From the NCBI GenBank assembly GCA_030835345.1, contig JAURPH010000007.1, positions 13,542 through 77,541 of the forward strand: a stretch of 64,000 nucleotides of DNA. Reading direction: 5' to 3'. The translations under genes were made by a program, and so were the position numbers. Numbering within the stretch: position 1 is the stretch's first letter; the number at the start of each line of letters is the position of its first letter. Under the pieces are notes generated by a model that made no database searches, was not told the DNA's origin, and was given only the letters and a program-made list of their open reading frames with translations. Below are positions 12,240 through 58,368 of this stretch, one piece after another. Source of the stretch: Thermodesulfobacteriota bacterium. Lineage in GTDB: Bacteria > Desulfobacterota_D > UBA1144.

Positions 12240-12257
12240 TAAGATATTTTAAGTTAT

Positions 12258-14468: not shown

Positions 14469-14495
14469 TTATGAATTATCATGTAGAATTAAGTC

Positions 14496-18639: not shown

Positions 18640-19281
18640 ATGGCCATCTTTAGAAATTTGAATTTAGATATCAAAGCTGTATTTGAAAAAGATCCAGCTG
18701 CAAGGAATTTATTCGAAGTAATTCTTACTTATCCAGGATTTCATGCAATTTTTTGGTATAGAGTTTCGCATGTTTTATGGAAAATTAAATTAAAGCTTTT
18801 CGCAAGAGTTATATCAAATATTGTTAGAATGTTGACTGGTATAGAAATACATCCTGGTGCAAAAATTGATGGAGGGTTTTTTATTGATCATGGAATGGGA
18901 GTCGTCATAGGTGAGACAACTGAAATAGGATCCAATGTGACAATTTATCAAGGTGTGACATTAGGTGGAATTAGTTCGAACAAAGGTAAGAGGCATCCGA
19001 CAATTTCTAATAATGTTATTGTAGGTGCAGGTAGCAAAATTTTGGGCCCACTTAATATTGGAACAAATACTAAAATTGGAGCAAATTCTGTTGTAATCGA
19101 CAATGTTCCTGAGGGTTCAACTGTTGTAGGAATACCCGGAAGAGTTGTTAGTAAAGAGTTTTCATCTAATGCACCGGATTTATATCATAATAAAATATCT
19201 GATCCAAATACAGATGAGATGGCATTATTGGAAGAAAGATTAAAGAATCTAGAAATAAAAATTAACAAATTAAAACCCTAG
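18640..19281 (+). CDS. cysE: Serine O-acetyltransferase
   Basis: SATase N-terminal helical domain ([27 protein letters not shown]) followed by hexapeptide repeats. Confidence 0.85.
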
Positions 19282-20283: not shown

Positions 20284-20372
20284 AATATCATCTTATTATC
20301 AGTTCTTCAATCGTTTGAATTCCAAACATGAAAAGGTAATATTTAAAAATCATTTTACTTTAGGAGAAATTA

Positions 20373-22573: not shown

Positions 22574-22590
22574 TATTTTATAATTCAATC

Positions 22591-23667
22591 ATGGCAAAGT
22601 CCCGCCCAACAAATAATTTAGAATGGATTGAATCTATAATAGGTAAAGATTCAGAATATCTTTTAAATCATAAATGTAATAAAATTGACAAAAATTTACT
22701 TTCGTTACCAGGTCCTAAGTTCATAGATAATTTTGTTAAAGAATCAAACAGGTCAAATGTAGTCTTGAGAAACTTCCAAACTCTTTTTAATCATGGAAGA
22801 CTCAAAGGTACAGGTTATTTGTCTATACTGCCTGTAGATCAAGGTGTCGAGCATTCTGCTGGGGCATCATTTACACCCAATCCTATATACTTTGATCCGG
22901 AAAATTTAGTTGAACTAGCTATTAATGGTGGTTGTAGTGCAGTTACATCTACTCTTGGAATGCTTGGAGCAGTCTCAAGAAAATATGCCCATAAAATTCC
23001 TTTTATCGTAAAATTAAACCACAATGAATTTTTATCTTATCCAAATAAATATGATCAAATTCCTTTTGCATCAGTAGACCAAGCATTTAATATGGGTGCA
23101 ATTGGAGTTGGTGCTACCATTTATTTTGGCTCTGATGAAAGTGCAAGGCAAATACAAGAAGTCTCTCAAATGTTTGAATATGCTCATTCTCTAGGATTGG
23201 TTACAATTCTTTGGGCATATCTTAGAAATTCTAATTTTAAAACCAAAACAAAGGACTATCATGTGGCAGCTGATTTAACTGGACAAGCAAACCATTTAGC
23301 TTCTACAATTGAGGCAGATATTGTTAAGCAAAAGATTGCCGAAACTAATGGTGGTTTTATAGACTTAAATTTTGGTAAAACAGATAAAGGTGTTTATTCC
23401 GATTTAACATCAGATAACCCAATTGATTTAAATAGATATCAAGTTCTTAATTGTCATGCGGGAAGGTCCGGACTTATAAATTCTGGAGGACCATCTGGAA
23501 ATGATGATTATGCGCAGGCTGTCAAAACCGCTGTTATAAATAAAAGGTCTGGTGGAATGGGACTTATTACAGGAAGAAAAGCTTTTCAAAAGCCTATGAA
23601 AGATGGAATAGAAATTTTAAACTTAGTTCAAGATGTTTATTTGAATAAAAAAATCACAATTGCTTAG
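22591..23667 (+). CDS. fbaB: Fructose-bisphosphate aldolase, class I (FbaB/DhnA type)
   Basis: 358 aa. [18 protein letters not shown] and overall similarity to bacterial class I FBA (DhnA family). Clustered with gap-pgk. Confidence 0.8.
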
Positions 23668-24674
23668 TTGAATAATTTACTTTTTAAAAATTTACTAATT
23701 TGTTTCACCATATCTGATGATCCTATAAATATTGGCGACTTTTGATGTATCGAACTGGGACTTATATCAAGAATTCTTTTTTTTCCATCAATAGCAAGTC
23801 CTCCAGCTTGTTCAATTATAAAAGCCATAGGATTACATTCATACATTAATCTTAATTTTCCATTAGGGGCTTTTTTTGATGCTGAATAAATAAATAAACC
23901 TCCCTTTAATAAACTTCTATGTATGTCAGCAACCATAGAGCCAACATATCTTAAGGAGTATGGCCTTTTAGTTTTTTCATCTTTTTGCTCACACCATCTT
24001 ATATATTCTTGAACAGATAGGGGGAATTCATAAAAGTTTCCTTGATTCACAGAGTACATATGACCTTTTTTTGGTATTTTTATATTTTCATGAGATAGAT
24101 AGAATTCTTGAACTATAGGATCTAAAGTAAAAGCATCGACTCCTTTTCCTACAGTAATTACATAAATTGTAGAGGATCCGTAAATTATATATCCTGCAGC
24201 AACTTGTCTGCTCCCTATTTGTAAGAAATCCTTTGTATAAGTTTTATCAATTATCGATGGCCTTTTTAATATTGAAAAAATTGTTCCCACTGGAACATTA
24301 ACATCTAGGTTGGATGAGCCATCAAGAGGATCAATACAAACTAAGTATTTAGAATTTTTAGATACCTCATTGTTAAATATTAATACTTTTTCTCTCTCTT
24401 CAGATACTATACCAGCACAATTGCCACCATTTTCAAGGGATTTTATAAATAAATTATTAGCAATAACATCTAATTTTTTAACATCCTCACCATGGGAATT
24501 TTTATTTCCCATAAAGTCTCCAATTGTATTATCTAAAGATGCATTATTTAGTTCTTTAGAAACTTGTCGCGCCGCAAGTTTAATATCCTTTAATAATGCT
24601 ATGAGTTCTCTATTTTTATCTCCGGTTAATTTATCTTTCAGTAAATATTGATAAGCGGTTAGCTTTTCTTTCAT
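23664..24674 (-). CDS. fbp: Fructose-1,6-bisphosphatase class 1
   Basis: ...[24 protein letters not shown]... and [21 protein letters not shown] motifs of FBPase I. Confidence 0.9.
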
Positions 24675-25175: not shown

Positions 25176-26156
25176 ATGAACAACAAAAAAATTTTCTCGA
25201 TTTTAGATAGAGAGTTACTCAAAATTGAGAATGTTCTATTAAGTGTTGTTAAAACTGATATTAAAATTTCTAAGGAAATATCTGAACATATTGTTTTAAA
25301 GCCTGGGAAAAGGTTCCGCCCACTACTGTTAGTATTAAGCTATTTAGCCTTTAATAGAAGGGTTAATATGAAAGTTATTAATTCTGCTGCGGCTGTAGAA
25401 CTTCTACATAATGCATCTCTAGTTCACGATGATATTGTTGACTTAGCTTCAATGAGAAGAGGGCAAAAAACGGCTAATGTTATTTGGGGAGATCATGCAA
25501 GTGTACTTGCTGGTGACTTTTTACTTTCAAAATCTTTATGGTTAGTAAACAAAGTCAACAACTTCCGAGTAATGGATACTGTAACAAATGCAGCATCAGA
25601 GTTAGCTAACGGTCAGATTTTAGATATGTCTTTATCAAAAAGCCCTAGCTCATTTAATCTTAATCTTTATTATAAAATGATATCTCTTAAAACCGCATCT
25701 TTATTATCTTCATGCTCCGAGGTCGGTGCAATCATTGCTAATGCAGATTCAGGCAAAATAAGGAAAATGAAAAATTTTGGCTTTAATCTCGGTATGTGCT
25801 TTCAAATAGTTGATGATTTGTTAGACTTTACAGGTTCCTCAGATAACCTTGGAAAAAAGCCCTTGCAAGACTTGAGTAATGGTAAAATAACACTTCCATT
25901 AATTATTGCACTTGAGAAAGCTAGAAAAAAAGATTTTTCCAAAGCTACTTTGATTTTAAACAATTCAAAATTTGATAGTAAGAATATAGATTTTCTGTAT
26001 AATTTAATACTTAAAGAGGATGCAATTGAGGATTCCAGGAAAGTCTTAAACAAGTTTACAAATAAGGCATTAAATAATATTAGCTTCCTCGAAGATAATG
26101 ACTACAGTAAGTCTTTAAGATATCTTTTAGAGGCAAGTTTAACAAGGGTTAATTAG
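25176..26156 (+). CDS. ispB: Polyprenyl diphosphate synthase (octaprenyl-diphosphate synthase-like)
   Basis: First DDxxD motif LVHDDIVDLASMRRGQ and second FQIVDDLLDFTGSSDNLGK motif. Confidence 0.85.
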   Translation: MNNKKIFSILDRELLKIENVLLSVVKTDIKISKEISEHIVLKPGKRFRPLLLVLSYLAFNRRVNMKVINSAAAVELLHNASLVHDDIVDLASMRRGQKTANVIWGDHASVLAGDFLLSKSLWLVNKVNNFRVMDTVTNAASELANGQILDMSLSKSPSSFNLNLYYKMISLKTASLLSSCSEVGAIIANADSGKIRKMKNFGFNLGMCFQIVDDLLDFTGSSDNLGKKPLQDLSNGKITLPLIIALEKARKKDFSKATLILNNSKFDSKNIDFLYNLILKEDAIEDSRKVLNKFTNKALNNISFLEDNDYSKSLRYLLEASLTRVN

Positions 26157-27778: not shown

Positions 27779-28232
27779 TTTTTTTACTCATTAAAATTGC
27801 ATCTTCATTGCTTTTTTGATAGTATTTCTTTCTTATTGAATCAGTTTTAAAACCATTTTTCCTATAAAAATTTATAGCTTCAAAATTATTAGAATTTACA
27901 TCTAAAAAAATCTTATTTATTTCTCTTCTTATACAAAAATCATTTAATTTTAATATTATTAAATTTGCTAAACCTTTTCTTCTTAATAATTCTGTAGTAG
28001 CAATTTTCATTATCTCTAAAAAATCTACTTCAATTCTAGAAAATGCATAAGCAAGTAGTTTATTATTTTCTTTTATACATATATTATAATTTTTTTCTCT
28101 AATCAGTTCTGAATTAATTTGGGATATGCTCCATGAATATTTAAAAGATTTATTTTCTATTTGATAAATCTCATCAGCATCATCTAAAACTATTTCTTCA
28201 ATATTTATCACTATATGTATTATAATAAACAC
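27765..28232 (-). CDS. GNAT-family N-acetyltransferase (RimI-like)
   Basis: 155 aa with an acetyl-CoA binding-like segment RRKGLANLIILKL and a C-terminal NFYRKNGF. Overlaps neighbouring gene ends. Confidence 0.55.
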   Translation of the reverse strand: MFIIIHIVINIEEIVLDDADEIYQIENKSFKYSWSISQINSELIREKNYNICIKENNKLLAYAFSRIEVDFLEIMKIATTELLRRKGLANLIILKLNDFCIRREINKIFLDVNSNNFEAINFYRKNGFKTDSIRKKYYQKSNEDAILMSKKIILP

Positions 28233-28961
28233 AAAATGAAGAAAGCACTTATTGTATTAAGTGGGGGACAGGATTCGACCACATGTTTGTTCTGGGCACT
28301 CAATCAAGGCTATGAATGTTCAGCAATAACATTTGATTACAACCAACTTCATTCTATTGAAATTGATTCAGCTAGGAAAATAGTGGATATAGCTAAGCTT
28401 AAAAATCATAAAATCTTAAAACTTGGATCAATATTTGATGGAGAATCACCTTTAACAAACTTAACGAGAGAATTGCAAACTCATAATAGCTTAGAGGAAT
28501 TTCCTCGTGGGCTACAACCAACATTTGTACCATCAAGAAATATTGTTTTTTTATCTTTAGCATCTAATTATGCTTATTCTTTGGGGATTGATACTATTGT
28601 TACTGGAGTTTGTGAAACAGATTATGCTGGGTATCCAGATTGCCGAAAAGAATTTATAGAATCATTAGAATCTTCAATTTCACTGGGCTTAGATAAGAAA
28701 ATTAAAATCTTAACACCGTTAATTAGCATAAAAAAATCTGATATAGTTAAACTTGCTTGGCAGCTTGGACCTATTTGTTGGAATGCTTTATCTTTTTCAC
28801 ATACAAGTTATGATGGAAAATATCCCCCAACAATCGGTGACCATGCTAATTTATTAAGAGCAAAGGGGTTTTTAGATGCAGGGCTACCTGATCCGTTAGT
28901 TCTTCGTGCAGTTAAAGATGGTCTAATGGAGAAACCAAAAACAAAGAATTATGAAGATTAA
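28215..28961 (+). CDS. queC: 7-cyano-7-deazaguanine synthase QueC (start probably MKKAL at 28236)
   Basis: KKALIVLSGGQDSTTCL PP-loop, with C-terminal Zn-binding cysteines. Confidence 0.9.
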   Translation: MYYNKHKMKKALIVLSGGQDSTTCLFWALNQGYECSAITFDYNQLHSIEIDSARKIVDIAKLKNHKILKLGSIFDGESPLTNLTRELQTHNSLEEFPRGLQPTFVPSRNIVFLSLASNYAYSLGIDTIVTGVCETDYAGYPDCRKEFIESLESSISLGLDKKIKILTPLISIKKSDIVKLAWQLGPICWNALSFSHTSYDGKYPPTIGDHANLLRAKGFLDAGLPDPLVLRAVKDGLMEKPKTKNYED

Positions 28962-29595
28962 GATAAGTGAAGTTTTTTATTCGCTACAAGGGGAAGGCAT
29001 ACAAATTGGAACCCCTACAGTATTTGTAAGATTGTTTGGATGTGATTTAAGGTGTTCTTGGTGTGATTCAATGTATGCAGTTGAAGGAAGGGATTTTAGC
29101 GTTTTAGAGATAAACCAGGTAATTGATAATGTATTATCATACCAATGTGGAAATGTTTGTATTACTGGTGGTGAACCCTTACTTCAATTGGAACAAACAC
29201 TATTTCTTACAGAAAAATTTATAGAAATAGATAAAAAAGTTATATTAGAAACAGCTGGCCATAGAAAGCCACCAGAAATTTTTAAAAATCCTGAAACCAT
29301 AGTAAGTATGGATTGTAAATGCCCATCTTCAGGTATGAATTTTAAATCAGATCTGCAAAATTTGATTCAATTAAAATCTAAGGATCAAATAAAGTTTGTT
29401 ATCGCGGATGACAATGATTATGTTTTTGCAAAAAAGATAGTAAAACAAAATTCTTTTAATGCAGAAATTATATTTCAACCGGTTTATGGCTCAAGCATAT
29501 CGGAAATCGCTAATGCTGTAATTAAGGATAAATTGAGAGTTAGAGTATTGCCACAGCTACATAAGGATATTTGGGGTGATATTAAAGGTGTTTAA
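28951..29595 (+). CDS. queE: 7-carboxy-7-deazaguanine synthase QueE (radical SAM)
   Basis: LQGEGIQIGTPTVFVRLFGCDLRCSWCDSMYA is the QueE CxxxCxxC cluster region. Confidence 0.85.
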   Translation: MKIKISEVFYSLQGEGIQIGTPTVFVRLFGCDLRCSWCDSMYAVEGRDFSVLEINQVIDNVLSYQCGNVCITGGEPLLQLEQTLFLTEKFIEIDKKVILETAGHRKPPEIFKNPETIVSMDCKCPSSGMNFKSDLQNLIQLKSKDQIKFVIADDNDYVFAKKIVKQNSFNAEIIFQPVYGSSISEIANAVIKDKLRVRVLPQLHKDIWGDIKGV

Positions 29596-29909
29596 TCTTT
29601 TTCACATTCAAGAGCTAACAGGGACTCAAAAGAATAAATACCAGTATCATGACCATCTCCCCATTTAAATTTTAAAGCATATGATCCCATTATTTCAACT
29701 GAAATTAGTTCAAAGCACTCTGGATTTTTTACTTCAATTTTCTTTTTAAAGCCCTTTAGTGCTGCCTTACATGTAGCGCATGGACATGCATTTCTTATGT
29801 CTCTAAGTAATAAATAGCTCTGTTGGTTATTGCTCCATGTAATTGAAAAAAGATTGTCATTTAATAATTCAAATTCTCTAACTGAAATGCTCATGATACA
29901 ATTATACAC
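29592..29909 (-). CDS. DUF971 family protein (gamma-butyrobetaine hydroxylase-like N-terminal domain)
   Basis: 105 aa with a CPCATC Zn-ribbon-like motif and a KFKWGDGHDTGIYSF block, characteristic of DUF971. Confidence 0.55.
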   Translation of the reverse strand: MYNCIMSISVREFELLNDNLFSITWSNNQQSYLLLRDIRNACPCATCKAALKGFKKKIEVKNPECFELISVEIMGSYALKFKWGDGHDTGIYSFESLLALECEKD

Positions 29910-29911
29910 AA

Positions 29912-30577
29912 ATGAAAGTTAGATTAGTTAGTTATTCAACTCCCACGAAAGAATTTTTAGATGATGGAATATCCGATGTACAAGAATTGGTAGCATTTTG
30001 TGCTCGTGTTTCAAATCCTTCAAACCAACATAATAAAGACACTTCAGAGAAGTTAATAAAATATTTAATAAAGAATAAGCATTGGTCACCATTAGAAATG
30101 GTGACAGCTTGTATTGAGATTGAAACAACTAGGGATATAGCCCGTCAAATTTTAAGGCATAGATCTTTTAGTTTTCAAGAGTTTAGTCAAAGATATGCAG
30201 ATCCTACTAAAGATTTATCTTTTGTGACAAGAGATGCAAGACTCCAAGATGAAAAGAATAGACAAAATTCTGTTGAGACTGAGGACATACAATTAAAAAA
30301 AGATTGGGAAAGAAAGCAGTCCGAGTTAATTGATTTATCTGTTAAAACTTATAAATGGGCAATAGATAATGGTATAGCAAAAGAGCAGGCTAGAGCAGTT
30401 TTACCTGAGGGTAATACAGTAAGTAGAATGTATATGAATGGAACCCTTAGAAGCTGGGTTCATTATATTGAGCTACGAAGTGCTAATGGAACACAAAAAG
30501 AACATATGGATATAGCTGTTGCGATTGCCGAGATTATTAGCGAAATTTTTCCAATGATGGATACATTCATTGAATAG
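29912..30577 (+). CDS. thyX: FAD-dependent thymidylate synthase ThyX
   Basis: ThyX motif RHRSFSFQEFSQRY (RHRx7-8S). 221 aa. Confidence 0.85.
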   Translation: MKVRLVSYSTPTKEFLDDGISDVQELVAFCARVSNPSNQHNKDTSEKLIKYLIKNKHWSPLEMVTACIEIETTRDIARQILRHRSFSFQEFSQRYADPTKDLSFVTRDARLQDEKNRQNSVETEDIQLKKDWERKQSELIDLSVKTYKWAIDNGIAKEQARAVLPEGNTVSRMYMNGTLRSWVHYIELRSANGTQKEHMDIAVAIAEIISEIFPMMDTFIE

Positions 30578-30579
30578 CT

Positions 30580-31446
30580 TTAAATATTAACTAATTCTAT
30601 ACCACTAGCATTTAAGTCTTTTTTTAAGTTCATGTCAACAAGGTTATGAGAAATTATCTTTTTTACTTTCCCACCTAAAAAATACTTTAAATCAATTTTT
30701 TTATGATTACAAAAATCATAAATTTTTTTGATATTATTGCTATCAACAAATAGATATGTTGGTATTGTTTCATTTATGTTCTCAATAAATTCCAACCAAT
30801 TTTTAAAGTTGATAAATTTTTTTTTATTCTTTAATAATCCAGAACAAATAGAATTACCAAATTTGATATTATTTTGATAAAAAATATTAACAAATTCAGT
30901 TTCTGAAATTTCTGAAATGACTTTGTGAAGTTGTTTTTCATCGAAGTTTAAACTGTTATTAAGATCGAATACCATTAATTTGTTGATTTTGGATTCATCC
31001 AATTTTTTCTTTGACATCATTCCAAATTTATTAATTGTTTTAAATGTTATTAAATTTTTATTTCCTATTTCTTTCTTAATTGAACTGTCTAATGAAATTA
31101 CTGAGAAAAAATCATCAGTATTAATCCTAATTGATTCTTCAATTTGATCTATGACCAATATGTCAAAATTTTTATTTAAATTATCAATATTTGAATCATA
31201 ATTTATTGAACAATTTAGAGCCTTTAAGCAATTAAGAGTTAAAAAATTTTCTAATGTTGTTGAACCACAACTGAATACTTTTTTATTCTCAAACCCATTT
31301 GTGGAGAAATATGCAATTGTATTATCTAGCGAATGTTTTATATCAGAGTAAGTATGCTGTTTCCAGTTCATTCCATCTAAAAACTGATAAGCGAGTGCCT
31401 GGCCATTATTTTTTAAAGCATCCTGTAATGAATTTAAATTTTGCAT
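30580..31446 (-). CDS. Hypothetical protein; N-terminal part is reminiscent of the N-terminal subdomain of acyl-CoA synthetases but lacks the AMP-binding P-loop
   Basis: 288 aa. GQALAYQFLDGMNWKQHTYSDIKHSLDNTIAYF...NKKVFSCGSTTLENFLTLNCLKALNCSIN resembles the start of adenylate-forming enzymes. No (S/T)SGTTGxPKG motif anywhere. Confidence 0.3.
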   Translation of the reverse strand: MQNLNSLQDALKNNGQALAYQFLDGMNWKQHTYSDIKHSLDNTIAYFSTNGFENKKVFSCGSTTLENFLTLNCLKALNCSINYDSNIDNLNKNFDILVIDQIEESIRINTDDFFSVISLDSSIKKEIGNKNLITFKTINKFGMMSKKKLDESKINKLMVFDLNNSLNFDEKQLHKVISEISETEFVNIFYQNNIKFGNSICSGLLKNKKKFINFKNWLEFIENINETIPTYLFVDSNNIKKIYDFCNHKKIDLKYFLGGKVKKIISHNLVDMNLKKDLNASGIELVNI

Positions 31447-34928: not shown

Positions 34929-35255
34929 TTATTTACCTTGGATTAGTAGAATAAACACAATTAAAATTACACTAAAACCAGTCAAAAATCCAATTAAGTT
35001 GATTGATAAATATTTAACCAAATAAAGTGTGACTAATGCAAGTATGGTGATTTTTAAAATTGTAGTAAAAAAAGGAATAAATTTACTTTTATTACTTGAT
35101 ATGAACAAATTTGAGATTGTCTTTACCCCAATGGAATTGATATATGAAAGAGTAGATCCATAGAAAAAACCCTCAATAAAATCAACACTTTTATATAGAT
35201 ATATACAATATGAGGCAATAATAATAAGCGATCCGATTCTTAAAAAATTTTTCAT
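34929..35255 (-). CDS. atpI: AtpI-like small membrane protein (ATP synthase protein I)
   Basis: 108 aa with three to four TM segments. Called from position, immediately upstream of atpB, as in alpha-proteobacterial atpI-B-E operons. Confidence 0.4.
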   Translation of the reverse strand: MKNFLRIGSLIIIASYCIYLYKSVDFIEGFFYGSTLSYINSIGVKTISNLFISSNKSKFIPFFTTILKITILALVTLYLVKYLSINLIGFLTGFSVILIVFILLIQGK

Positions 35256-38965: not shown

Positions 38966-40018
38966 ATGGATAAGATTAAATTTGGACTTGTTCCCCCAAT
39001 GCCCGGGGCTGATTGTCAGGGTCTAGTAGATTTCTCAGTAAAAGCAGATAATATGGGTTTTGATAGTCTTTGGTTTCCTGATCATTTAGCTTTTATAGCT
39101 CCAAGTCCTGCATATGAGGCATGGACGATAGCTGCTGCAGTCGCCCAACAAACAAAAAATATAACAATTGGTACTACTTCTGACCCACATCGTAATCATC
39201 CTGCTGTCTTTGCCCAGAGACTTGCAACAGTAGATCATCTTTCTAAAGGAAGAGTTGCTCTTGGTTTAGGTGTAGGCGAGTCAATGAATACTGATGCTTA
39301 TGGTATTCCCTGGGATAGTCCATTCAAAAGAATGACTGAATCAATGGATATCATGAAGCTTTTATGGTCTACAAATGAAACAGTAAATTATAACGGCGAC
39401 TTTTTTAAACTGAAAGATGCTTCATTACTTTTAAATTTATATGAGGATAGACAAAGTGTCCCTTTTTATTTTGCAACACATACTGATAAAGGACTAGACT
39501 TGATTGGTAAATCTGGTGATGGCTGGATGCCATTGGACTTAACTCCAGGACTTTATAAAGAATCTCTAGATAAAATCGAAAAGTCAGCCTTGAATTCAGG
39601 AAGAGATATGAAAGAAATTGATACAACACTTTGGATTTTTACTTCTTTGGGTGAAAACGAAGATGAAGCCTATAAAACATTGGAGCCTTTTAGATATGTT
39701 TGTATAATGCAAGATCAATTAAAGAAAGCGGGTTATGATATCGAAATTCCTGATGAGTATAAAGGTTTGAATTACTTTAATATTACTCCTACAGATGAAC
39801 TAAGAAAACAAAAATTTAGAGATTTGGGTAAATTTTTCCCTAGAGAAGCAGTTATAGATTTTACAATTACTGGATCTAAGAAAGATTGTATAAAAAAGAT
39901 AGAAAAGTATGTTGATAAGGGTGTAAAGCATTTTGTACTGTTCCATTATTTTAGTCCTGATCCATCAAAGGCAATGGAAATCTACTCTAAAGAAATACTT
40001 CCTTACTTTAATTCTTAA
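38966..40018 (+). CDS. LLM-class (luciferase-like) flavin-dependent oxidoreductase, probably F420-dependent
   Basis: 350 aa TIM-barrel LLM protein. KFGLVPPMPGADCQGLVDFSVKADNMGFDSLWFPDHL resembles the N-terminus of F420-dependent Mer/Fgd/Adf-type reductases. A cof cluster is present in the same window. Confidence 0.7.
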   Translation: MDKIKFGLVPPMPGADCQGLVDFSVKADNMGFDSLWFPDHLAFIAPSPAYEAWTIAAAVAQQTKNITIGTTSDPHRNHPAVFAQRLATVDHLSKGRVALGLGVGESMNTDAYGIPWDSPFKRMTESMDIMKLLWSTNETVNYNGDFFKLKDASLLLNLYEDRQSVPFYFATHTDKGLDLIGKSGDGWMPLDLTPGLYKESLDKIEKSALNSGRDMKEIDTTLWIFTSLGENEDEAYKTLEPFRYVCIMQDQLKKAGYDIEIPDEYKGLNYFNITPTDELRKQKFRDLGKFFPREAVIDFTITGSKKDCIKKIEKYVDKGVKHFVLFHYFSPDPSKAMEIYSKEILPYFNS

Positions 40019-41561
40019 GTGTTAAATTTGAAAAGTCTATTATTCCAAGCTTAGAATACTCAAACTCACTAATTCTTTTATTCCTTAAAAATAATTGATT
40101 TGATTGAAACAACGGGACTATTACACTATCTTCTTCAATTAAAATCTTTTGAGCTTTTTTATAAATTTGTTTTCTTGAGATTTCTTCTGCTACCTCTGAT
40201 CCTTTATTTATAAGTTCATCGTAATAATTATTACACCAGCCTGTCTCGTTATTACCACTGTTACAGGTAAAAAGGTTCATAAAATTATGTGGGTCTGGAT
40301 AATCTGCTGCCCACCCGGCTCTAAAAATATTAGGCCTATTTGAATCAAGTTGCATGAGATAAACTTTCCACTCCAAGCCTTTTATTTCTACATCAATACC
40401 AAGATTTTCTTTCCACATGTTTTGAAGTATCTCTGCAATAATTCTGTTATTTCCAGAATGTGGATATAAAAATTTAATCTTAGTACTCTTTTCGAAATTT
40501 TCATCATTAATTATTTTTTTGGCTAAAGTTGGATTGTATTCTTCTTTGTATTCATCATAACCAATCATTCCTTCTGGTATCCATGAATTTGTCGGGCTCA
40601 CAGTACCATGTAAAACTTTTTTAAATACACTTTTATTTATCGCAAGTGAAAATGCTCTTCTTATATTCGAATTATTAAAGGGAGGAAGGTCAACATTAAA
40701 TCCTATATAATTATTACGATATTGTTTCTTAACATTTAGAATACCCTTGCTTTTTAATCTAGGTATCTCGAGTAATGGTATGCCGCTACCATCAATTATA
40801 TCAACTTCCCCATTTTCAAACATTGCTAATGCAGAAGATGAATTTTCATTAATAATAATTTTTACTGGATGACTGATTTTATTTTTCGGTTCTAATAGGA
40901 TATGGCTGTTATTCTTTCTTTCAATTAAATTATATGGCCCAATTGAAACCATATTCTTAGGATCAGTCCATTTCACTCCATATTTATTTATTAAATCTAA
41001 TCTTATTGGGAATGTTGACATAAAGCTCATTAAGCTTGGAAAATAAGCTTTATTGTTTCTTAGAGTAATTTCAATAGTATATTTATCAATACTCTTTACT
41101 CCAACCTTATTAAAATCTTTGATTACACCTGAGTTAAATTCCTTAGCATTTTTAATATCAAATAAAAAATACGCATAATCTGCTGCAGTTGAGGGTTCCA
41201 GTAGTCTTTGCCATGAATCTATGAAATGTTTAGAATTAAGCTCAATACCATCAGACCAATAAATATTTTTCTTTAGTTCGAAATATAATTTGTTGTCATC
41301 TTCAAAGTACCACTTTTTTGCAAAATTATTTTTAATTCGAAAATTATGGTCAAGTTTTGTTAAGCCCCCCATAATATTATTTATTATTTGGAATGAAGCA
41401 CTGTCTGTAGCTAGATTCCAATCTAAAGTCGAGGGTTCGCTAGACATATGAATTTTTATTATTTGCTTTGCTTGACCTGGATATGATGAAAGAAATAAAA
41501 GAAGTTGAATTAATAGAAAAAAATGGGAAAGAAAATATCTATTCTTCTGCATCATCAGCAA
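40008..41561 (-). CDS. ABC-transporter substrate-binding protein, family 5 (oligopeptide/dipeptide/nickel type)
   Basis: Signal peptide followed by SBP_bac_5-type sequence (SSEPSTLDWNLATDSASFQIINNIMGGLTKL). 517 aa. Confidence 0.8.
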   Translation of the reverse strand: MLMMQKNRYFLSHFFLLIQLLLFLSSYPGQAKQIIKIHMSSEPSTLDWNLATDSASFQIINNIMGGLTKLDHNFRIKNNFAKKWYFEDDNKLYFELKKNIYWSDGIELNSKHFIDSWQRLLEPSTAADYAYFLFDIKNAKEFNSGVIKDFNKVGVKSIDKYTIEITLRNNKAYFPSLMSFMSTFPIRLDLINKYGVKWTDPKNMVSIGPYNLIERKNNSHILLEPKNKISHPVKIIINENSSSALAMFENGEVDIIDGSGIPLLEIPRLKSKGILNVKKQYRNNYIGFNVDLPPFNNSNIRRAFSLAINKSVFKKVLHGTVSPTNSWIPEGMIGYDEYKEEYNPTLAKKIINDENFEKSTKIKFLYPHSGNNRIIAEILQNMWKENLGIDVEIKGLEWKVYLMQLDSNRPNIFRAGWAADYPDPHNFMNLFTCNSGNNETGWCNNYYDELINKGSEVAEEISRKQIYKKAQKILIEEDSVIVPLFQSNQLFLRNKRISEFEYSKLGIIDFSNLTLKN

Positions 41562-42042
41562 CGACTGTAATAAGGTGGGCTCCTAGATCTACAGTATCAC
41601 CATCTTTTGCACTAACCTCTGTAACAGTACCGTCGATAGAAGATTTTAGTTCGCTCTCCATTTTCATGGCTTCAACTATTATAACCCCTTCGCCCTCATT
41701 TACTTTATCCCCAGAAGCTTTTAAAACTTTTACAACTCTTCCAGGCATTGGTGCTACTATCTTATCAATTCCTGATGCATTTTCTAATGCACTCTTGTCT
41801 CTTGTTGAGGGGACTTCAAAAATAAAAGTTTCACCCTTATAAAAAATTTCAATAATTTTGCCTTCTTTTTTAAGGGCAATTGTATATGTTTTACCATTTA
41901 AAATCATGGAATACAGATTTGAATCAATCTTTATTAGTTCACTTTTAAATTTCTTTTCGTCGGTTTCAATTCTGTATCCATTATTCTCTGGGAATAATTC
42001 AAAGTTTATTAATTCTTTACCGATTTTTAGACTATATTTCAT
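41539..42042 (-). CDS. accB: Biotin carboxyl carrier protein with N-terminal BT-like segment (acyl-CoA carboxylase BCCP subunit)
   Basis: C-terminal biotinyl domain VNEGEGVIIVEAMKMESELKSSIDGTVTEV (biotin-Lys in the AMKM motif). 167 aa. RBS AAGGA about 8 nt upstream. Tandem TAG TAA stops end the upstream biotin carboxylase gene. Confidence 0.8.
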   Translation of the reverse strand: MKYSLKIGKELINFELFPENNGYRIETDEKKFKSELIKIDSNLYSMILNGKTYTIALKKEGKIIEIFYKGETFIFEVPSTRDKSALENASGIDKIVAPMPGRVVKVLKASGDKVNEGEGVIIVEAMKMESELKSSIDGTVTEVSAKDGDTVDLGAHLITVVADDAEE

Positions 42043-42057
42043 ATTTAAATTTCCTTA

Positions 42058-43554
42058 CTAAAACATTGAATTCCTTGACAAACTAGATCGTCTAGCAATG
42101 TATTTCCAAGGTGTAAATCTTGGATCTTTAATTGTTTCAACTTCACCTGATGCTGAATCAAGTATAATAGCTCCGGCAATAGAAGCTATTTCAAGATTCT
42201 CTTTAGGAACCTTTAAAAGCTTTTTATGCTTTTCTATAAATCCTGTATCTAGTTTTCCACTTATGAAATCTTTATCATCCATTAGTCTATTAAGAAATCC
42301 TAAATTTGTTTTCAAACCTAATACAATATATTCCTCTAAAGCTCTTTTCATTCTTTTAATTGCATCATTCCTATCTTTGCCCCAAACTATTAATTTTGAA
42401 AGCATTGGATCATAAAAAGTTGTTACTTCATATCCATTAAATAGAGAAGAATCATCTCTAACTCCAGGTCCTTGAGGTGACTTAATATATGTTGCAACGC
42501 CTGGAGAAGGTATAAAATTATTATTAGGGTCTTCAGCACAGATTCTGCACTCTATAGCATGCCCATTAATACCTATATCCTTTTGTTTAATACTTAATGG
42601 CTGACCTGATGAAACTTTAATCATTTCTTTAACTATATCAATCCCTGTAATCATTTCAGTAATAGGATGCTCAACTTGAACCCTTGTATTCATTTCTAAG
42701 AAATAAAAATTCTCTTTTTGATCCATAATAAATTCAACTGTTCCTGCTCCAGAATAAGATACTTTTTTGGCCAATTTAACAGCAATTTTCCCCATGAGCT
42801 CTCTCGTTTTCTTACTTACACCAGGAGAGGGGGCTTCTTCAACAACTTTTTGATGTCTTCTTTGAATTGAACATTCTCTTTCAAAAAGATGTATAACATT
42901 TCCTTTTTTATCACCTAAAATTTGGATTTCGATATGCCTTGGTTCTTGGATAAATCTTTCAATAAAAACTGCATCATTATTGAATGCAGATTTAGCTTCA
43001 CTTTTTGCCATTTTCAGCGAATTTTCAAAATCAGACATCTGATGAACCAATCTCATTCCTTTACCGCCACCTCCTGCTGAGGCTTTAATCATTAATGGAA
43101 ATCCAATTTTTTTAGCTACATCAACTGCTTCATCATCTTTTACTTCTCCCTCGGTTCCAGGAACCAGTGGAACTTTAGCTGCTTTTGCTATTTCTCTAGA
43201 AGTAATTTTATCACCCATAAGTCTAATCGCCTCTGCGCTGGGTCCAATAAAATCAATTTTATTTTTTATACATTTCTCAGCAAATTCTGCATTTTCAGAT
43301 AAAAAGCCATACCCAGGATGAATACCATCACACTTGGCTTTTTTTGCAACTTTTATAATATTATCTCCAATTAAATAACTTTCATTAGGTAGTGGGCCAC
43401 CAATGTTATATGCCTCATCTGCCATATTTACATGGAGAGAATTTCTGTCTGCATCAGAAAAAACTGCAACAGTCTTGATTTCAAGCTCTTTACAAGCCCT
43501 AATAATCCTTACCGCTATTTCACCTCTATTTGCTATTAGAATTTTTTTATACAT
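42058..43554 (-). CDS. accC: Biotin carboxylase subunit of acyl-CoA (acetyl/propionyl-CoA) carboxylase, with about 50-aa C-terminal extension
   Basis: MYKKILIANRGEIAVRIIRACKELEIKTVAVFSD... ATP-grasp and BC C-terminal domains. 498 aa. Confidence 0.9.
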   Translation of the reverse strand: MYKKILIANRGEIAVRIIRACKELEIKTVAVFSDADRNSLHVNMADEAYNIGGPLPNESYLIGDNIIKVAKKAKCDGIHPGYGFLSENAEFAEKCIKNKIDFIGPSAEAIRLMGDKITSREIAKAAKVPLVPGTEGEVKDDEAVDVAKKIGFPLMIKASAGGGGKGMRLVHQMSDFENSLKMAKSEAKSAFNNDAVFIERFIQEPRHIEIQILGDKKGNVIHLFERECSIQRRHQKVVEEAPSPGVSKKTRELMGKIAVKLAKKVSYSGAGTVEFIMDQKENFYFLEMNTRVQVEHPITEMITGIDIVKEMIKVSSGQPLSIKQKDIGINGHAIECRICAEDPNNNFIPSPGVATYIKSPQGPGVRDDSSLFNGYEVTTFYDPMLSKLIVWGKDRNDAIKRMKRALEEYIVLGLKTNLGFLNRLMDDKDFISGKLDTGFIEKHKKLLKVPKENLEIASIAGAIILDSASGEVETIKDPRFTPWKYIARRSSLSRNSMF

Positions 43555-43571
43555 AAATGAATCTCTCTTGT

Positions 43572-45134
43572 TTAAAGTGGAATTAACCCATGCTTTTTTG
43601 GAGGGTTATTTTGCCTTTTTCCTTCGAGCATCTCAAATGAATTAACAACCCTTATTCTTGTATCTTCGGGCTTGATTACTTCATCGATATAACCCAGGTT
43701 TGCTGCTCTATATGGATTAGCAAATAATTCTTTATATTCTTCTACAAGTCTGGCCTTTTCCGCTACTGGGTCAGAGGCTTCTGCTATTTCTCTTCTATTT
43801 ACAATGTTCACTGCACCATCGGGTCCCATAACAGCAATTTCAGCTGTAGGGAAAGCCAAGTTTATATCGCCTCTTAAATGTTTAGATGACATAACATCAT
43901 ATGCTCCACCATAAGCTTTTCTGGTTATAACTGTAACTCGTGGAACTGTTGCTTCGCAGTATGCATATAACAATTTGGCACCATGTAAGATAATTCCATT
44001 CAATTCCTGATCTACACCAGGCAAAAATCCAGGAACATCTACTAGAGTAAGTAAAGGGATGTTGAAACAATCACAAAATCTTACAAATCTGGCCCCCTTA
44101 ATAGAAGATTTAATATCAAGTACACCAGCTAGAACATTTGGTTGGTTTCCAACTACTCCAACAGTTTTTCCGTTTACTCTTGCGAATCCTACTATAATGT
44201 TAGGTGCATAATTTTCAGCAACTTCAAAGAAGTATTCATTATCTACGATTGATGAAACTACTTCTTTCATATCATAAGGCTTATTTGGATTTGTTGGAAC
44301 TATATCTCTTAATTTATCAACTTTTCTATCAATTGGATCATCACATTTTATTGCTGGTGGATCTTCCATATTGTTTAATGGAAGAAAAGTAAAAAGCTCT
44401 CTTAATAATGATAGACAATCTTCATCGTTCTCTGCTGCAAATTGAGCAACACCACTTTCAGTTGTATGAACTACAGCACCACCAAGTTCTTCCGAAGTTA
44501 CTTCTTCATTTGTAACTGTTTTTACAACATCAGGGCCAGTTATAAACATATAGCTAGTATCTTTAACCATTGCTATGAAATCTGTCATAGCAGGAGAATA
44601 TACAGCTCCACCAGCACTTGGTCCCATGATTGCGGAAATTTGAGGTATTACACCTGATGCTTGAACATTTCTTAAGAAGATTTCTGCATAACCTGCAAGG
44701 CCTCTTACGCCTTCTTGAATCCTTGCACCACCTGAATCACTTAAACCAATTACAGGACAACCGACTTGAACAGCCATATCCATAATTTTTGTAATTTTTC
44801 TTGCATGAGCTAAACCCAGGGCACCACCAAAAATAGTAAAGTCTTGGGCATAAACAAAAACTTGTCGCCCATCAATTTTTCCATACCCAGTTACAACACC
44901 ATCTCCAAGAAATTTGGTTTTTTCCATTCCAAAATTATAATTTTGATGTTCTACAAATTTATCAAGCTCAACAAAAGAACCATTATCAAGCAATAAATTG
45001 ATTCTTTCCCTAGCGGTAAGCTTTCCTTGCTTATGTTGCTTTTCAACTCTAGCATCACCACCAGCTTCATTAGCTTGAGAAATTTTATCCTCAAGTACTT
45101 TTATTTTTTGTTCCATCGTTATTTCTTCACTCAT
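43572..45134 (-). CDS. pccB: Propionyl-CoA carboxylase beta chain / carboxyltransferase subunit (12S type)
   Basis: 520 aa carboxyl transferase domain. [20 protein letters not shown]...[27 protein letters not shown]. Confidence 0.9.
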
Positions 45135-45206: not shown

Positions 45207-45845
45207 CTAATGAGATATTTTTTCTAGTATTGAATTTAACTTTCCAATCAAATGGCTTATTTCGTGATTATTATTAACAATGAAGTCAAAGTCATACTTA
45301 TTGTGTGCCATTCCTTTTTGTGCAAAAAGAATTTTTTTAATTTCTTCTTTCGTTTTATTATCCCTGGTCAAAACTCTTTGAATTATTATTTTTTGAAATG
45401 CCTTAATAAGTATTATTTTATCAAGAAATTTGCCAATTTTAGTTGTTTTTTTTATTAAAGCACCTTCAAAAACAATAAATTCCTTTTTTTTATGATTATT
45501 TTCAACTGTTAATGCTTTTACTTTTTTTAAGAGTTCTGGATGAACTATTGAATTTAATTTGTCCCTTTTTCTTTTATCATTAAAAACTATTTCAGCAATT
45601 TTTCTTCTATTTAACGTTTTGTTTTTATTTAAAACTTCTTTACCAAAAGTATTTAAAATTTTTTCATAGCAAGGCATTCCACGCTTCATTATTTTTCTTG
45701 ATTCTAAATCTAAATTATAACAAGGAATATTTATTGATTTTAAATAATTCAAAGCGGCACTTTTGCCGCTTCCTATTTTTCCAGAAATTCCTATTTTTAT
45801 AATTTTATTTTTCATTGTTCTTAATAAATTTTTTAATTCTTTCAA
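45207..45845 (-). CDS. coaE: Dephospho-CoA kinase (start probably the internal Met, MKNKIIKIGISG)
   Basis: P-loop IKIGISGKIGSGKSAALNYL and CoaE lid region. Confidence 0.8.
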   Translation of the reverse strand: MKELKNLLRTMKNKIIKIGISGKIGSGKSAALNYLKSINIPCYNLDLESRKIMKRGMPCYEKILNTFGKEVLNKNKTLNRRKIAEIVFNDKRKRDKLNSIVHPELLKKVKALTVENNHKKKEFIVFEGALIKKTTKIGKFLDKIILIKAFQKIIIQRVLTRDNKTKEEIKKILFAQKGMAHNKYDFDFIVNNNHEISHLIGKLNSILEKISH

Positions 45846-47178
45846 TAACTATTTCATGCCCAAGTATTTTTAGAATTTCAAATATACCTGGTGATGACTT
45901 AGTTCCTGTTAGTAAAATTCTTAGAGGTAAAGCTAAAGATTTCATTTTTATTTCATTTTCATTTAAATAGTTGGTGAATACTTCTTTGATCTCTTCAATT
46001 TCTTTTGGTTTTTTTTCTTCCCAAACAATTATGAATTTTTTTAGTTCTGATACAGCTTGGTTATCTAATTCATTGATTAGTTCATTTTCGTAAGATTCAT
46101 TTGTCAACAAGCAAAAGTTTAATGACTTCTGTAATTCATTTAAATCTTTATTTTTTTCTTTAACTGCATTTATTGCTAATTCTTCATCAACTCCATCTAT
46201 GAATTCTAATTTCAATCTTTCCTTTAATTCACTATTTGGGTAATTTTTGATTTGAATATTGTTTACCCATGATAGTTTTTCGGAATCAAATACAGCGGGT
46301 GATTTACTAAGGTTGTCTAATGAAAAGTTGGAAATCATTTCGTTTAAAGTAAATATTTCTTGATCACCATAAGCCCAACCAAGCCGTGCTAAATAATTAA
46401 TAATAGATATTGGCAAATAACCTTTCTCTTTGAAGCTATTAATTGATTCTGCTCCATGCCTCTTGCTTAATTTGGTCTTATCTTTACCCAAAATCATTGA
46501 TACATGTGTGAAATTTGGTAATTTTTTCTTTATAGAGTTAAATATTAAAACTTGCTTAGGTGTATTAGATAAATGGTCCTCACCTCTAATTATGTTAGTG
46601 ATACCCATTTCAGCATCATCTAAAGCTGAAGCAAAGTTATAAGTAGGAAATCCATCACTTTTTATAATTATAAAATCATCCAAGGTGCTTGAATCAATCG
46701 TTATATTTCCTCTAAGTGTGTCATTAAAATTTATCTTTGTTTGATAGGGTGTTTTAAATCTAATAACAAAGTCTCTTCCATTTGGATTTTCTTTTTTTTC
46801 ACGCCATGTATTTGGATATTTATATACTTTATTTTCTGCCTTAGCCTTATCTTTCAACAAATTTACTTCTTCTTGAGTCATATAACATCTATAAGCTAAG
46901 TCTTCATCTATCAGTTTGTCAGCTGCTGCTTTATAAATCTCAAGTCTATTAGACTGCTTAATTGGTCCCTCATCCCAATCTAAACCTAACCAGCGCAGTG
47001 ATTCTAATATTTCGATAAGGGATTCATTTGAAGATCTCTCCTTATCTGTATCTTCTATCCTAACAAGAATTTTACCATTGTTTTTTTTTGCAAAAAGATA
47101 ATTAAAAATAGCTGTCCTAACGGCTCCAAGATGAAGAGAACCCGTAGGACTTGGGGCAAACCTTACTTTTACATTCAT
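45805..47178 (-). CDS. gltX: Glutamyl-tRNA synthetase
   Basis: VRFAPSPTGSLHLGAVRTAIFNYL (HIGH-type motif) and KLSKRHG (KMSKS). Confidence 0.9.
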   Translation of the reverse strand: MNVKVRFAPSPTGSLHLGAVRTAIFNYLFAKKNNGKILVRIEDTDKERSSNESLIEILESLRWLGLDWDEGPIKQSNRLEIYKAAADKLIDEDLAYRCYMTQEEVNLLKDKAKAENKVYKYPNTWREKKENPNGRDFVIRFKTPYQTKINFNDTLRGNITIDSSTLDDFIIIKSDGFPTYNFASALDDAEMGITNIIRGEDHLSNTPKQVLIFNSIKKKLPNFTHVSMILGKDKTKLSKRHGAESINSFKEKGYLPISIINYLARLGWAYGDQEIFTLNEMISNFSLDNLSKSPAVFDSEKLSWVNNIQIKNYPNSELKERLKLEFIDGVDEELAINAVKEKNKDLNELQKSLNFCLLTNESYENELINELDNQAVSELKKFIIVWEEKKPKEIEEIKEVFTNYLNENEIKMKSLALPLRILLTGTKSSPGIFEILKILGHEIVIERIKKFIKNNEK

Positions 47179-47185: not shown

Positions 47186-47725
47186 TTATACTTTAATTTT
47201 AATATTTTTAATTATTACTTCTTTTATTAATAAGCAAGAAAAAGCAAGACCAAAAAAAATATTTAAATTTTTGAAATTAATGGTGGATCCTAATTCATTA
47301 AAAACTATTATAAGGCTCCATGTAATAATATTTAAAATTATAAGAAATGACATTTTATTCGTTAGGTTGTTTAGTTTTAAATTTGATATGTATAAGGATA
47401 AAAAAATTACTATGATGCTACATATTGATAAAAATTTTGTAGATATTCCCAACTCAAAATTAGTAATAAAGATGTAATCAATATAAGAAAAAGGTAATAG
47501 GTATTGATGATTATTATATAAATAATCTGCATGGATTTTTGTCAAAGGACAATATCCTAGACCGAAGAAAAATCCAAGAATCGTCCAACAAAATATAGTT
47601 AGTAATATTAAGAGGACACTTATTCTTCTGGTTTTTTCAAAAATCCACCCAAATGCATTTATTATTATAATTGCTATATGAATCATATTCATAGCTAGGT
47701 CAAAATTATCAAAGTATAAGAACAT
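47186..47725 (-). CDS. Hypothetical polytopic membrane protein (possibly DUF2784-like; GYCPLT motif)
   Basis: 179 aa with about five TM segments. Conserved-looking GLGYCPLTKIHADYLY. Confidence 0.3.
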   Translation of the reverse strand: MFLYFDNFDLAMNMIHIAIIIINAFGWIFEKTRRISVLLILLTIFCWTILGFFFGLGYCPLTKIHADYLYNNHQYLLPFSYIDYIFITNFELGISTKFLSICSIIVIFLSLYISNLKLNNLTNKMSFLIILNIITWSLIIVFNELGSTINFKNLNIFFGLAFSCLLIKEVIIKNIKIKV

Positions 47726-57234: not shown

Positions 57235-58055
57235 ACAAACTTCCTTTTGATAAAATTGCCTATATTTAAAAAGCTCATAGTAGATATAAATATAAAAATA
57301 CATGGAAATATAATTAAATGCGGATAACTCCTAATCCCTTCCCATCCTGTGCTAGCCATTAATCCCCAACTTATCTCTGGCGAAGATATTCCAATTCCTA
57401 AAAAACTTAATGTTGATTCTGCCAATATTGAGCTTGGTATTGTAAATGTAAAGGTTACAACCAATGGAGCTAGTATATTTGGAAGGATTTCTTTAAAAAT
57501 TATATGTGTCTTACCAAAGCCTTTTAATTTAGCCGATATAATGAATGGCAGATTTTTTAATTCTAAAACGCTAGACCTTGAAATCCTAGCAACTCTCATC
57601 CAGCTTAGTAGAGATAAGGCTAGAGTTATTCCCAATAAACCTTTTCCAAATATTAAAATAAATATTGAAATCAATAAGAGATCTGGAATTGAATAAAATA
57701 TATCAACTATTTTCATCATAATTTCATCTACATAAGATCCATATAAACCAGAAATACAGCCATAGATTCCACCAAAAATTAATGAAATGGTCGATGCTGA
57801 AAGTGCAATGAATAAAGAGACTTTGGTTCCATATATCAAACGACTTAATATATCTCTTCCTAATTCATCTGTACCTAAATAGTTCAACCAAGATGGCGTT
57901 GATAATATATTGTTATAATCTGATTTGGAAGCTTTATATGGGGCAAATATTTCAGGAAAAACACTAAAAAGTAGAAGTAAAATGATTATTGAAAGTGAAA
58001 TATAGAATTTATAAGCTTCTTTTCTTCCTAGACTTCTTATGTTCAACTTTAACAA
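57231..58055 (-). CDS. ABC-transporter permease, DppC/OppC-like (BPD_transp_1)
   Basis: C-terminal EILPNILAPLVVTFTFTIPSSILAESTLSFLGIG is the DppC/OppC signature. Its extended N-terminus overlaps the queF 3' end. Confidence 0.75.
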   Translation of the reverse strand: MLKLNIRSLGRKEAYKFYISLSIIILLLLFSVFPEIFAPYKASKSDYNNILSTPSWLNYLGTDELGRDILSRLIYGTKVSLFIALSASTISLIFGGIYGCISGLYGSYVDEIMMKIVDIFYSIPDLLLISIFILIFGKGLLGITLALSLLSWMRVARISRSSVLELKNLPFIISAKLKGFGKTHIIFKEILPNILAPLVVTFTFTIPSSILAESTLSFLGIGISSPEISWGLMASTGWEGIRSYPHLIIFPCIFIFISTMSFLNIGNFIKRKFV

Positions 58056-58368
58056 TAGTTTTAACCCCTCCTCTCACATTAAAGTCTCCAATTATTGATA
58101 CATATTTTGGATTACAGGATTTTACGAAATCATCTAAAATCCTATTGGTCACATTTTCATGGAATTCGCCTACATTTCTATAAGATTGAAAATATAATTT
58201 TAAAGATTTTAGTTCAACACACTTCTTATCTGGAACATATTTTATATATATTGTAGCAAAGTCAGGCTGTCCAGTTTTTGGACAAACAGATGTAAATTCT
58301 GGACAAGAAATTTCTATTTCATAATCTCTTTTTGTATTTTTATTCTGAAAAGTATCAATAAGACTCAT
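58009..58368 (-). CDS. queF: NADPH-dependent 7-cyano-7-deazaguanine reductase QueF (type I, short)
   Basis: EISCPEFTSVCPKTGQPDFATIYIKYVPDKKCVELKSLKLYFQSYRN is almost identical to the B. subtilis QueF core, including the Cys nucleophile and E(S/L)K(S/A)hK motif. Confidence 0.85.
   Translation of the reverse strand: MSLIDTFQNKNTKRDYEIEISCPEFTSVCPKTGQPDFATIYIKYVPDKKCVELKSLKLYFQSYRNVGEFHENVTNRILDDFVKSCNPKYVSIIGDFNVRGGVKTIVKVEHKKSRKKRSL

Follow-up and report, generated by a model that had tools for sequence, protein, structure and literature searches.

A predicted three-gene acyl-CoA carboxylase of a marine Dadabacterium with its alpha chain encoded as two genes

In two-subunit propionyl-CoA carboxylase (PCC; structure 3N6R and, for the human enzyme, 7YBU), the elements BC (biotin carboxylase), BT (BC-CT interaction domain) and BCCP (biotin carboxyl carrier protein) are fused in one alpha chain, PccA, which is paired with the carboxyltransferase (CT) or beta subunit, PccB. 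Two further arrangements have been defined: archaeal acetyl-CoA/propionyl-CoA carboxylases (ACC/PCC) consist of three separate BC, BCCP and CT subunits, and the bacterial enzymes termed 'XCC' consist of a BC-BCCP fusion and a CT (PMC3199775, PMC6269866). In the two-subunit pyruvate carboxylase (PC) of Methylobacillus flagellatus and P. aeruginosa (5KS8), the BCCP-bearing subunits wrap their strands in trans around a C-terminal helix of BC (residues 454-472, mostly alanines), which gives a BT-like domain, and deletion or mutation of this helix abolishes the holoenzyme (PMC5059739). Here we analyze three adjacent genes (41539-45134) in a 64,000-nucleotide stretch of a Thermodesulfobacteriota genome (assembly GCA_030835345.1, contig JAURPH010000007.1), referred to below as the window, whose numbering is used throughout. 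We consider it probable that the three genes encode one biotin-dependent acyl-CoA carboxylase, most likely a PCC, with the alpha chain encoded as two genes.

The three open reading frames (ORFs) are co-directional on the minus strand and tightly spaced, with 17 nt between the CT and BC genes; the positions, strand and lengths (520, 498 and 167 aa) given by the original prediction, which was made from the DNA letters alone, are correct. The CT subunit is covered by the Pfam domain Carboxyl_trans over residues 32-518 (2.2e-199), and the oxyanion-hole motifs AGGAVYSPA and GGAYDV are present in its translation. The BC subunit contains Biotin_carb_N, CPSase_L_D2 and Biotin_carb_C (1e-40 to 1e-80) within residues 1-441, scores 668 bits against the NCBIfam model accC TIGR00514 (cut-off 626.5) and can be aligned with E. 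coli BC (1bnc) over residues 2-443; its catalytic motifs GGGGKGM, ECSIQRRHQKVVEEAP, EMNTRVQVEHP and HAIECRI are legible, and a 57-aa tail follows the last Pfam domain. The only significant Pfam domain of the carrier protein is Biotin_lipoyl (residues 94-159, 4.5e-19), in which the biotin-attachment lysine is K127, within EAMKME; A125-M126-K127-M128 are invariant in 40 homologues, and the carrier also matches the MmdC and OadA models of NCBIfam. The GC content of the three genes (0.30-0.34) is like that elsewhere in the window (28-34%), and the window's value fits the streamlined genomes (~1.22 Mb) of pelagic Dadabacteria in PMC8115339. A promoter and terminator scan was uninformative in this AT-rich DNA, giving fewer promoter-like matches than shuffled sequences and no terminator within the cluster. 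The trio is predicted to be an intact, ordinary biotin-dependent acyl-CoA carboxylase of a pelagic marine Dadabacterium.

Table 1 Positions of the carboxylase genes, their parts and associated genes in the window
Feature	Coordinates	Strand	Basis
Methylmalonyl-CoA mutase (MCM), large catalytic subunit, 539 aa	26159-27778	+	TIGR00641
Carrier protein (BCCP), 167 aa	41539-42042	-	Biotin_lipoyl
Carrier linker (residues 77-91), biotinyl domain (92-162), acidic tail and stop codon	41539-41814	-	
Carrier N-terminal domain (residues 1-76), read as the barrel half of BT	41815-42042	-	AF2, Foldseek
BC/BCCP gene boundary	42043-42060	-	Sequence read
BC subunit, 498 aa	42058-43554	-	Pfam and NCBIfam
BC C-terminal tail (residues ~449-498) and stop codon	42058-42210	-	Alignment to fused MCC alpha
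BC catalytic part (residues 1-448)	42211-43554	-	Pfam, TIGR00514, 1bnc alignment
CT (beta) subunit, PccB-like, 520 aa	43572-45134	-	Pfam Carboxyl_trans
coaE, dephospho-CoA kinase	45207-45845	-	Pfam CoaE
gltX	45805-47178	-	Pfam tRNA-synt_1c

The break between the BC and carrier chains maps to the region that is BT in fused PccA and MccA chains. Aligned alone, the BC protein extends to residue 504 of the alpha chain of P. aeruginosa methylcrotonyl-CoA carboxylase (MCC) and to residue 539 of human MCC alpha, in both cases well beyond the BC domain. In HMMER alignments, carrier residues 24-158 correspond to human PCCA 582-725, and the carrier from about residue 46 onward aligns to MCC alpha chains in the region ahead of their BCCP domain. 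With the 167-aa carrier attached to the last 89 residues of BC, HMMER aligned the composite sequence without interruption to residues 434-686 of Leishmania MCC alpha and 460-707 of human MCC alpha. Together, the two proteins thus run in the order of a fused alpha chain, in whose BT domain the break is located. The genuine split within the PccA-equivalent that had been called from the DNA is borne out and located more precisely. Compared with two-subunit PCC, to whose beta subunit the CT is a close homologue, all of the BC, BT and BCCP elements are present in colinear order, but the alpha chain is made of two polypeptides, with the break placed after the predicted helix and hook of BT and before the first predicted barrel strand.

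The tail of BC contains a predicted helix of small and hydrophobic residues, K451-A468 (KENLEIASIAGAIILDSA); beyond a variable loop comes W483-K-x3-R488, a conserved motif that resembles a hook. The helix pattern and the WK...R motif are common to all split BCs examined, including those of Dadabacteria, FCB-type loci and Anaerolineae. A single-sequence AlphaFold2 (AF2) model of the tail has helices at residues 451-468 and 482-490, at low confidence (pLDDT 47.5). From the conservation and this low-confidence model, we infer that the tail provides the helix and hook of a BT domain.

The complementary part would be supplied by the carrier. An AF2 model of the carrier, built with a 40-sequence alignment (mean pLDDT 79.9), shows eight consecutive β-strands within residues 2-76 (2-7, 10-19, 22-27, 31-40, 43-48, 51-60, 63-68 and 71-76; pLDDT 65-82 over this part), followed by a low-confidence linker and a confidently modeled biotinyl domain (92-162). 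In Foldseek searches the whole carrier (165-174 columns) matched the BT and BCCP parts of MCC and PCC alpha chains, from both human and bacterial enzymes, as well as the BT-BCCP part of yeast ACC, with E ~1e-10. The Pfam family PCC_BT (PF18140) aligns to carrier residues 9-82 with 14.4 bits (E 0.044), below its cut-off of 23.5; the stretch matched is barrel positions 42-116 of the 126 in the model. A relative of the carrier with 47% identity (P0036) reaches 24.5 bits at the same positions, above the cut-off, and an FCB-type relative 12.2 bits. We read the N-terminal domain of the carrier as the eight-stranded barrel half of BT, on the strength of the model and these matches. The description of the 167-aa protein as BT-like plus biotinyl, already proposed from the DNA, agrees with the strands, the Foldseek and HMMER alignments and the Biotin_lipoyl match.

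By analogy with two-subunit PC, the BT domain is probably reassembled in trans from the helix and hook of BC and the barrel of the carrier. The PC helix 454-472 and K451-A468 lie at the same distance from the BC domain. Differences between the two systems concern the remaining parts. In PC, two CT-BCCP beta subunits contribute four strands each, whereas a single small protein would provide all eight here; the pyruvate CT of PC is located on the BCCP chain, whereas the CT described here is a separate protein of the acyl-CoA type; and the BC tail continues here past the helix into the hook-like WK...R motif.

The carboxylation chemistry is established for this enzyme family. In the proposed mechanism, BC would carboxylate the biotin on K127 of the carrier using ATP and bicarbonate, after which the biotinyl domain would swing to the CT hexamer, where the carboxyl group would be moved to propionyl-CoA, yielding (S)-methylmalonyl-CoA. 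The helix of the BC tail would insert in trans into the carrier barrel and tether BC to BCCP, and the hook and barrel would dock both onto the CT core, as in two-subunit PC. The break, retained in different phyla and placed precisely between the predicted helix and barrel, makes these enzymes a natural system for studying the nucleation of holoenzyme assembly by BT. For specialists, the point of interest would be a BT domain assembled in trans, together with its bearing on how these enzymes came to be fused.

The boundary between the BC and BCCP genes was examined in the sequence and in related loci. The junction reads ATG TTT TAG TAA GGA AAT TTA AAT ATG; the tandem TAG TAA stops are followed by GGAAATTTAAAT, comprising a Shine-Dalgarno-like AAGGA and a 9-nt spacer before the ATG at 42042. 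A search of species-representative genomes with the BC protein returned 76 loci, the closest with 98% identity; this locus and about 30 more (identity down to 63%) belong to metagenome-assembled genomes labeled Candidatus Dadabacteria, Thermodesulfobacteriota or 'Deltaproteobacteria bacterium TMED58'. The best 120 matches in a search for CT homologues were all from Dadabacteria. Separate BC and BCCP genes in the order CT-BC-BCCP were found in 33 related loci (BC identity 63-98%), with a BC of 497-498 aa where the annotated start is unambiguous and a BCCP of 162-172 aa. In the marine lineages among them the two genes are separated by 17, 15, 11, 9 or 2 nt, in deeper lineages start and stop overlap in a 4-nt ATGA, and the relative reading frames vary between loci. 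The tandem stops and the AAGGA ribosome-binding site (RBS), from which a true gene boundary had been proposed, are thus both present, and the boundary itself is retained in the 33 loci with varying spacers and frames. The original prediction had named a single-base indel at the junction as the finding that would overturn it. This does not apply, because the two ORFs are already in frame with each other, the ATG lying 18 nt from the first stop, and an indel of one base could not fuse them. Judged by these sequence comparisons, the split is genuine and older than the diversification of the Dadabacteria class.

The substrate of the enzyme was assessed from the CT subunit, which aligns full-length to PccB structures. 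Its best matches among proteins of known structure are human PCCB (691 bits), the T. maritima protein 1vrg (682), 3n6r_B (671) and S. coelicolor PccB (669), and the top five distinct sequences are all deposited as PCC beta. Scores were lower with the S. tokodaii CT 1x0u (631), M. tuberculosis AccD5 (598), AccD6 (333) and MCC beta (~239 bits). In a gap-free block, Asp413 of the CT is aligned with D422 of S. coelicolor PccB. This aspartate is conserved in all 31 Dadabacteria orthologues and is also found in the CTs of the FCB-type loci and of locus L082, and an Anaerolineae orthologue has Ile at the position. Diacovich et al. reportedly found in 2004 that D422 disfavors acetyl-CoA and that its mutation broadens specificity towards acetyl-CoA. 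The specificity residue, which the original prediction had left to be checked, is thus of the PCC type, and the CT is PccB-like. Taken together, the CT sequence favors PCC as the most likely activity, possibly accompanied by some activity on acetyl-CoA.

A possible downstream step of the pathway is encoded by the MCM gene. Its product scores 761 bits against TIGR00641 (cut-off 303.8), matching in the N-terminal domain only, and has no B12-binding domain. The gene starts 2 nt past a polyprenyl diphosphate synthase gene (25176-26156, plus strand) and is unlinked to the carboxylase genes. The absence of an MCM small subunit, MeaB and an epimerase nearby indicates that the mutase, too, is split, with its partners encoded elsewhere. 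The proposed capacity to convert propionyl-CoA to succinyl-CoA is overstated, as the MCM catalytic subunit was the only further component found among the window ORFs scanned. The carboxylase would give pelagic Dadabacteria a step for carboxylating propionyl-CoA, in keeping with the window's MCM large subunit and likely B12-uptake genes, and we infer a physiological link to the mutase; the consequence for this genome is little. A cobalamin riboswitch (14305-14484, minus strand, 95 bits) lies upstream of the gene for a TonB-dependent receptor (12258-14216) and of that for a periplasmic binding protein (11310-12239). Together they likely form a B12 uptake operon (11310-14484, minus strand), which fits a B12-dependent mutase in the window.

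Three points weigh against a dedicated PCC. First, a scan of nearly all non-overlapping window ORFs of at least 100 aa found no methylmalonyl-CoA epimerase, no B12-binding MCM subunit and no MeaB. Second, the D422 position is an imperfect predictor of substrate: 3n6r_B, deposited as PCC beta, has Val there and T. maritima 1vrg has Ile. Third, fabH, encoding 3-oxoacyl-ACP synthase III, is found at 9600-10556 on the minus strand, and no accA or accD was seen in the window, so that the trio may have a role in malonyl-CoA supply. [quoted passage not shown] The three-subunit layout is shared with the archaeal bifunctional ACC/PCC (PMC3199775, PMC6269866), the presence of fabH means that the cell depends on some carboxylase for the malonyl-CoA of type II fatty-acid synthesis, and pelagic Dadabacteria genomes are streamlined (~1.22 Mb), with few paralogues (PMC8115339). 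Neither accA, accD and accB nor birA appeared among the window ORFs scanned. However, with only ~5% of the genome covered by the window, little can be concluded from not finding accA and accD there, and Asp413 occupies the position at which Asp is said to disfavor acetyl-CoA.

[quoted passage not shown] A profile of the carrier family was searched against 1.84 billion representative proteins and gave 1640 clusters of a stand-alone family of BT barrel plus BCCP at E<=1e-30. Stand-alone proteins of 155-190 aa, mostly matched end to end, make up 115 of the 150 best clusters. The members that have a name belong to Saccharicrinis (Bacteroidota), NC10/Methylomirabilales, Binatia, Schekmanbacteria, Deferrimicrobium and Acidiferrales; one Anaerolineaceae and one Marinilabiliaceae genome also have the split layout, and at least six bacterial phyla, Acidobacteriota included, are represented among the identifiable relatives of the same layout. 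Where context is legible, the carrier gene adjoins a gene for a BC of 502-529 aa, and on longer contigs also one for a CT of 511-516 aa, in bacterial surroundings (sigma-54 activators, a T9SS-tail protein, TamB/BamA, HtrA). No archaeal member surfaced among the named matches to the carrier profile, and a search seeded with a P. horikoshii BCCP fragment gave only short biotinyl proteins.

The trio studied here is placed with bacterial trios annotated under NCBI and JGI names as a 'biotin/lipoyl-containing protein', an 'acetyl-CoA carboxylase biotin carboxylase subunit' of ~500 aa and an 'acyl-CoA carboxylase subunit beta'. These uncharacterised trios, from Bacteroidota, Acidobacteriota, NC10, Binatia, Schekmanbacteria and Anaerolineae, share its domain layout, subunit sizes and BC-tail motif. 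Identity of the carrier protein drops to 26-40%, and gene order differs, being CT-BC-BCCP here and in L082 and L032, and BC-BCCP-CT in FCB-type loci. The trio is well conserved and belongs to a bacterial family of three-subunit acyl-CoA carboxylases that is large but has been little described. The term 'archaeal-type' used in the original prediction is apt, as far as these sequences tell, for the subunit layout only: the three-subunit arrangement is present, but it is not unusual for bacteria, as the identifiable relatives of the same layout are all bacterial and belong to a very large family. Three separate subunits are often regarded as a mark of archaea, and metagenome surveys use acetyl-CoA/propionyl-CoA carboxylase as a key gene of the 3-HP/4-HB cycle (e.g. 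PMC8941161, PMC8406227). Given that the layout is common in bacteria, matches of layout or orthologue group are by themselves insufficient to establish archaeal-type carbon fixation; no genes of the 3-HP/4-HB cycle were seen among the window ORFs scanned.

Two observations were made on individual members of the family. Five proteins of 343-795 aa among the best matches to the carrier profile (P0221, P0224, P0228, P0251 and P0343) have 3-5 separate matched stretches each and look like chains in which several biotinyl, or BT-barrel-plus-biotinyl, units follow one another in tandem. The Anaerolineaceae locus L032 (2426-6039 on its own contig) has the CT-BC-BCCP order, a longer BC tail and a CT with Ile at the PccB D422 position; it possibly encodes an enzyme that has this architecture and either favors acetyl-CoA or is promiscuous.

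How the split layout arose can be addressed only tentatively. One possibility, which we hold with little confidence, is that the bacterial split family is neither a product of fission nor an import but the surviving unfused form of an ancestral three-subunit carboxylase of CoA substrates (postulated in Lombard and Moreira 2011), and that it is perhaps the sole acyl-CoA carboxylase in pelagic Dadabacteria. If so, BT would have begun as an interface of two chains, the helix on BC and the barrel on BCCP, and would have been fused later in PccA, MccA and eukaryotic ACC; as sole carboxylase, the enzyme would serve fatty-acid synthesis as well as the assimilation of propionate.

It is very unlikely that an AccC/AccB/PccB operon was recently acquired from archaea by horizontal transfer. 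Subunits of similar size and layout are reported for Crenarchaeota and Thaumarchaeota, and Nitrosopumilus reportedly has the CT-BC-BCCP order. Against this resemblance, all named relatives of the carrier are bacterial, and several indirect indications argue against a recent import. The CT scores 669-691 bits with human, Thermotoga, alphaproteobacterial and Streptomyces PccB compared with 631 for S. tokodaii 1x0u; the base composition of the genes does not depart from that of the window; coaE, CT, BC and BCCP stay linked in that order throughout the Dadabacteria class; and the 499-aa model PRK08654 aligns to BC over positions 1-448 only, with a score below its cut-off, leaving the BC tail unaligned to the last 50 positions of the model. 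The NCBIfam model PRK05641 matched only the biotinyl domain of the carrier; we take this model to be built largely on Thermococcales decarboxylase gamma chains, which have no BC partner, and did not use it against an archaeal affinity.

It is still less probable, to the point of being remote, that the CT and BCCP are subunits of a methylmalonyl-CoA decarboxylase or a transcarboxylase. The mmdA subfamily TIGR01117 is the sole full-length NCBIfam match of the CT (813 bits, 9.1e-245), which, like the MmdC and OadA matches of the carrier, is what such an enzyme would show, but the score is below the cut-off of 998.8. Moreover, an intact BC gene lies between the CT and BCCP genes with gaps of 15-17 nt, its tail and the N-terminal domain of the carrier are predicted to form a matched BT pair, and neither a membrane beta or delta decarboxylase subunit nor a 5S transcarboxylase subunit is encoded adjacent to them.

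Finally, the reading in which an assembly or sequencing error or a pseudogenizing frameshift broke a fused pccA at the BC/BCCP junction has in its favor only the general expectation of a single-chain bacterial PccA and is rejected as having practically no chance of being correct, since two consecutive in-frame stops are followed by the RBS-like AAGGA and ATG, the variation of spacers, frames and ATGA overlaps over the 33 loci, from independent assemblies, rules out an artefact or a recent pseudogenization, most of the best carrier clusters are stand-alone proteins, and BC genes adjoin stand-alone carrier genes in unrelated bacteria as well.

In marine Dadabacteria lineages, the conserved gene order is gltX-coaE-CT-BC-BCCP followed by a gene for a substrate-binding protein and then, in convergent orientation, by one for an F420-type LLM oxidoreductase. 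The gene for the OppA-like ABC substrate-binding protein (40008-41561, minus strand) starts within the last BCCP codons (ATGATG, 41555-41550). This overlap suggests translational coupling of a peptide-uptake protein to the carboxylase genes, and the adjacency is conserved in marine Dadabacteria. The F420-type LLM-class oxidoreductase (38966-40018, plus strand) is 81-95% conserved, and in every marine Dadabacteria locus its gene is convergent with the carboxylase genes. A cluster for F420 biosynthesis on the plus strand comprises CofD (14496-15422), the F420-0:gamma-glutamyl ligase CofE (15430-16176) and a pair of CofG/CofH-like genes of the radical-SAM type (16160-17419 and 17429-18616). The published description of marine Dadabacteria genomes (PMC8115339) makes no mention of carboxylases, propionate, fatty acids or F420 use.

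Other genes in the window include a gluconeogenesis/glycolysis cluster (19270-24674 and 8470-9627) with a semialdehyde dehydrogenase, GAPDH, PGK, a DeoC/LacD-family aldolase (358 aa), a class 1 FBPase and a short PGI-like protein (385 aa). The queuosine precursor genes QueC, QueE and QueF are divided between two places, and the flavin-dependent thymidylate synthase ThyX adjoins a DUF971/GBBH-like_N protein (29592-29909); the coordinates of this queuosine/ThyX region are 28215-29595, 58009-58368 and 29912-30577. Four minus-strand ORFs of 288, 179, 145 and 108 aa (30580-31446, 47186-47725, 10606-11043 and 34929-35255) have no Pfam family at the thresholds used, and the 179-aa product resembles a multi-pass membrane protein. 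A DUF1152 protein of 316 aa is encoded at 6113-7063 on the plus strand.

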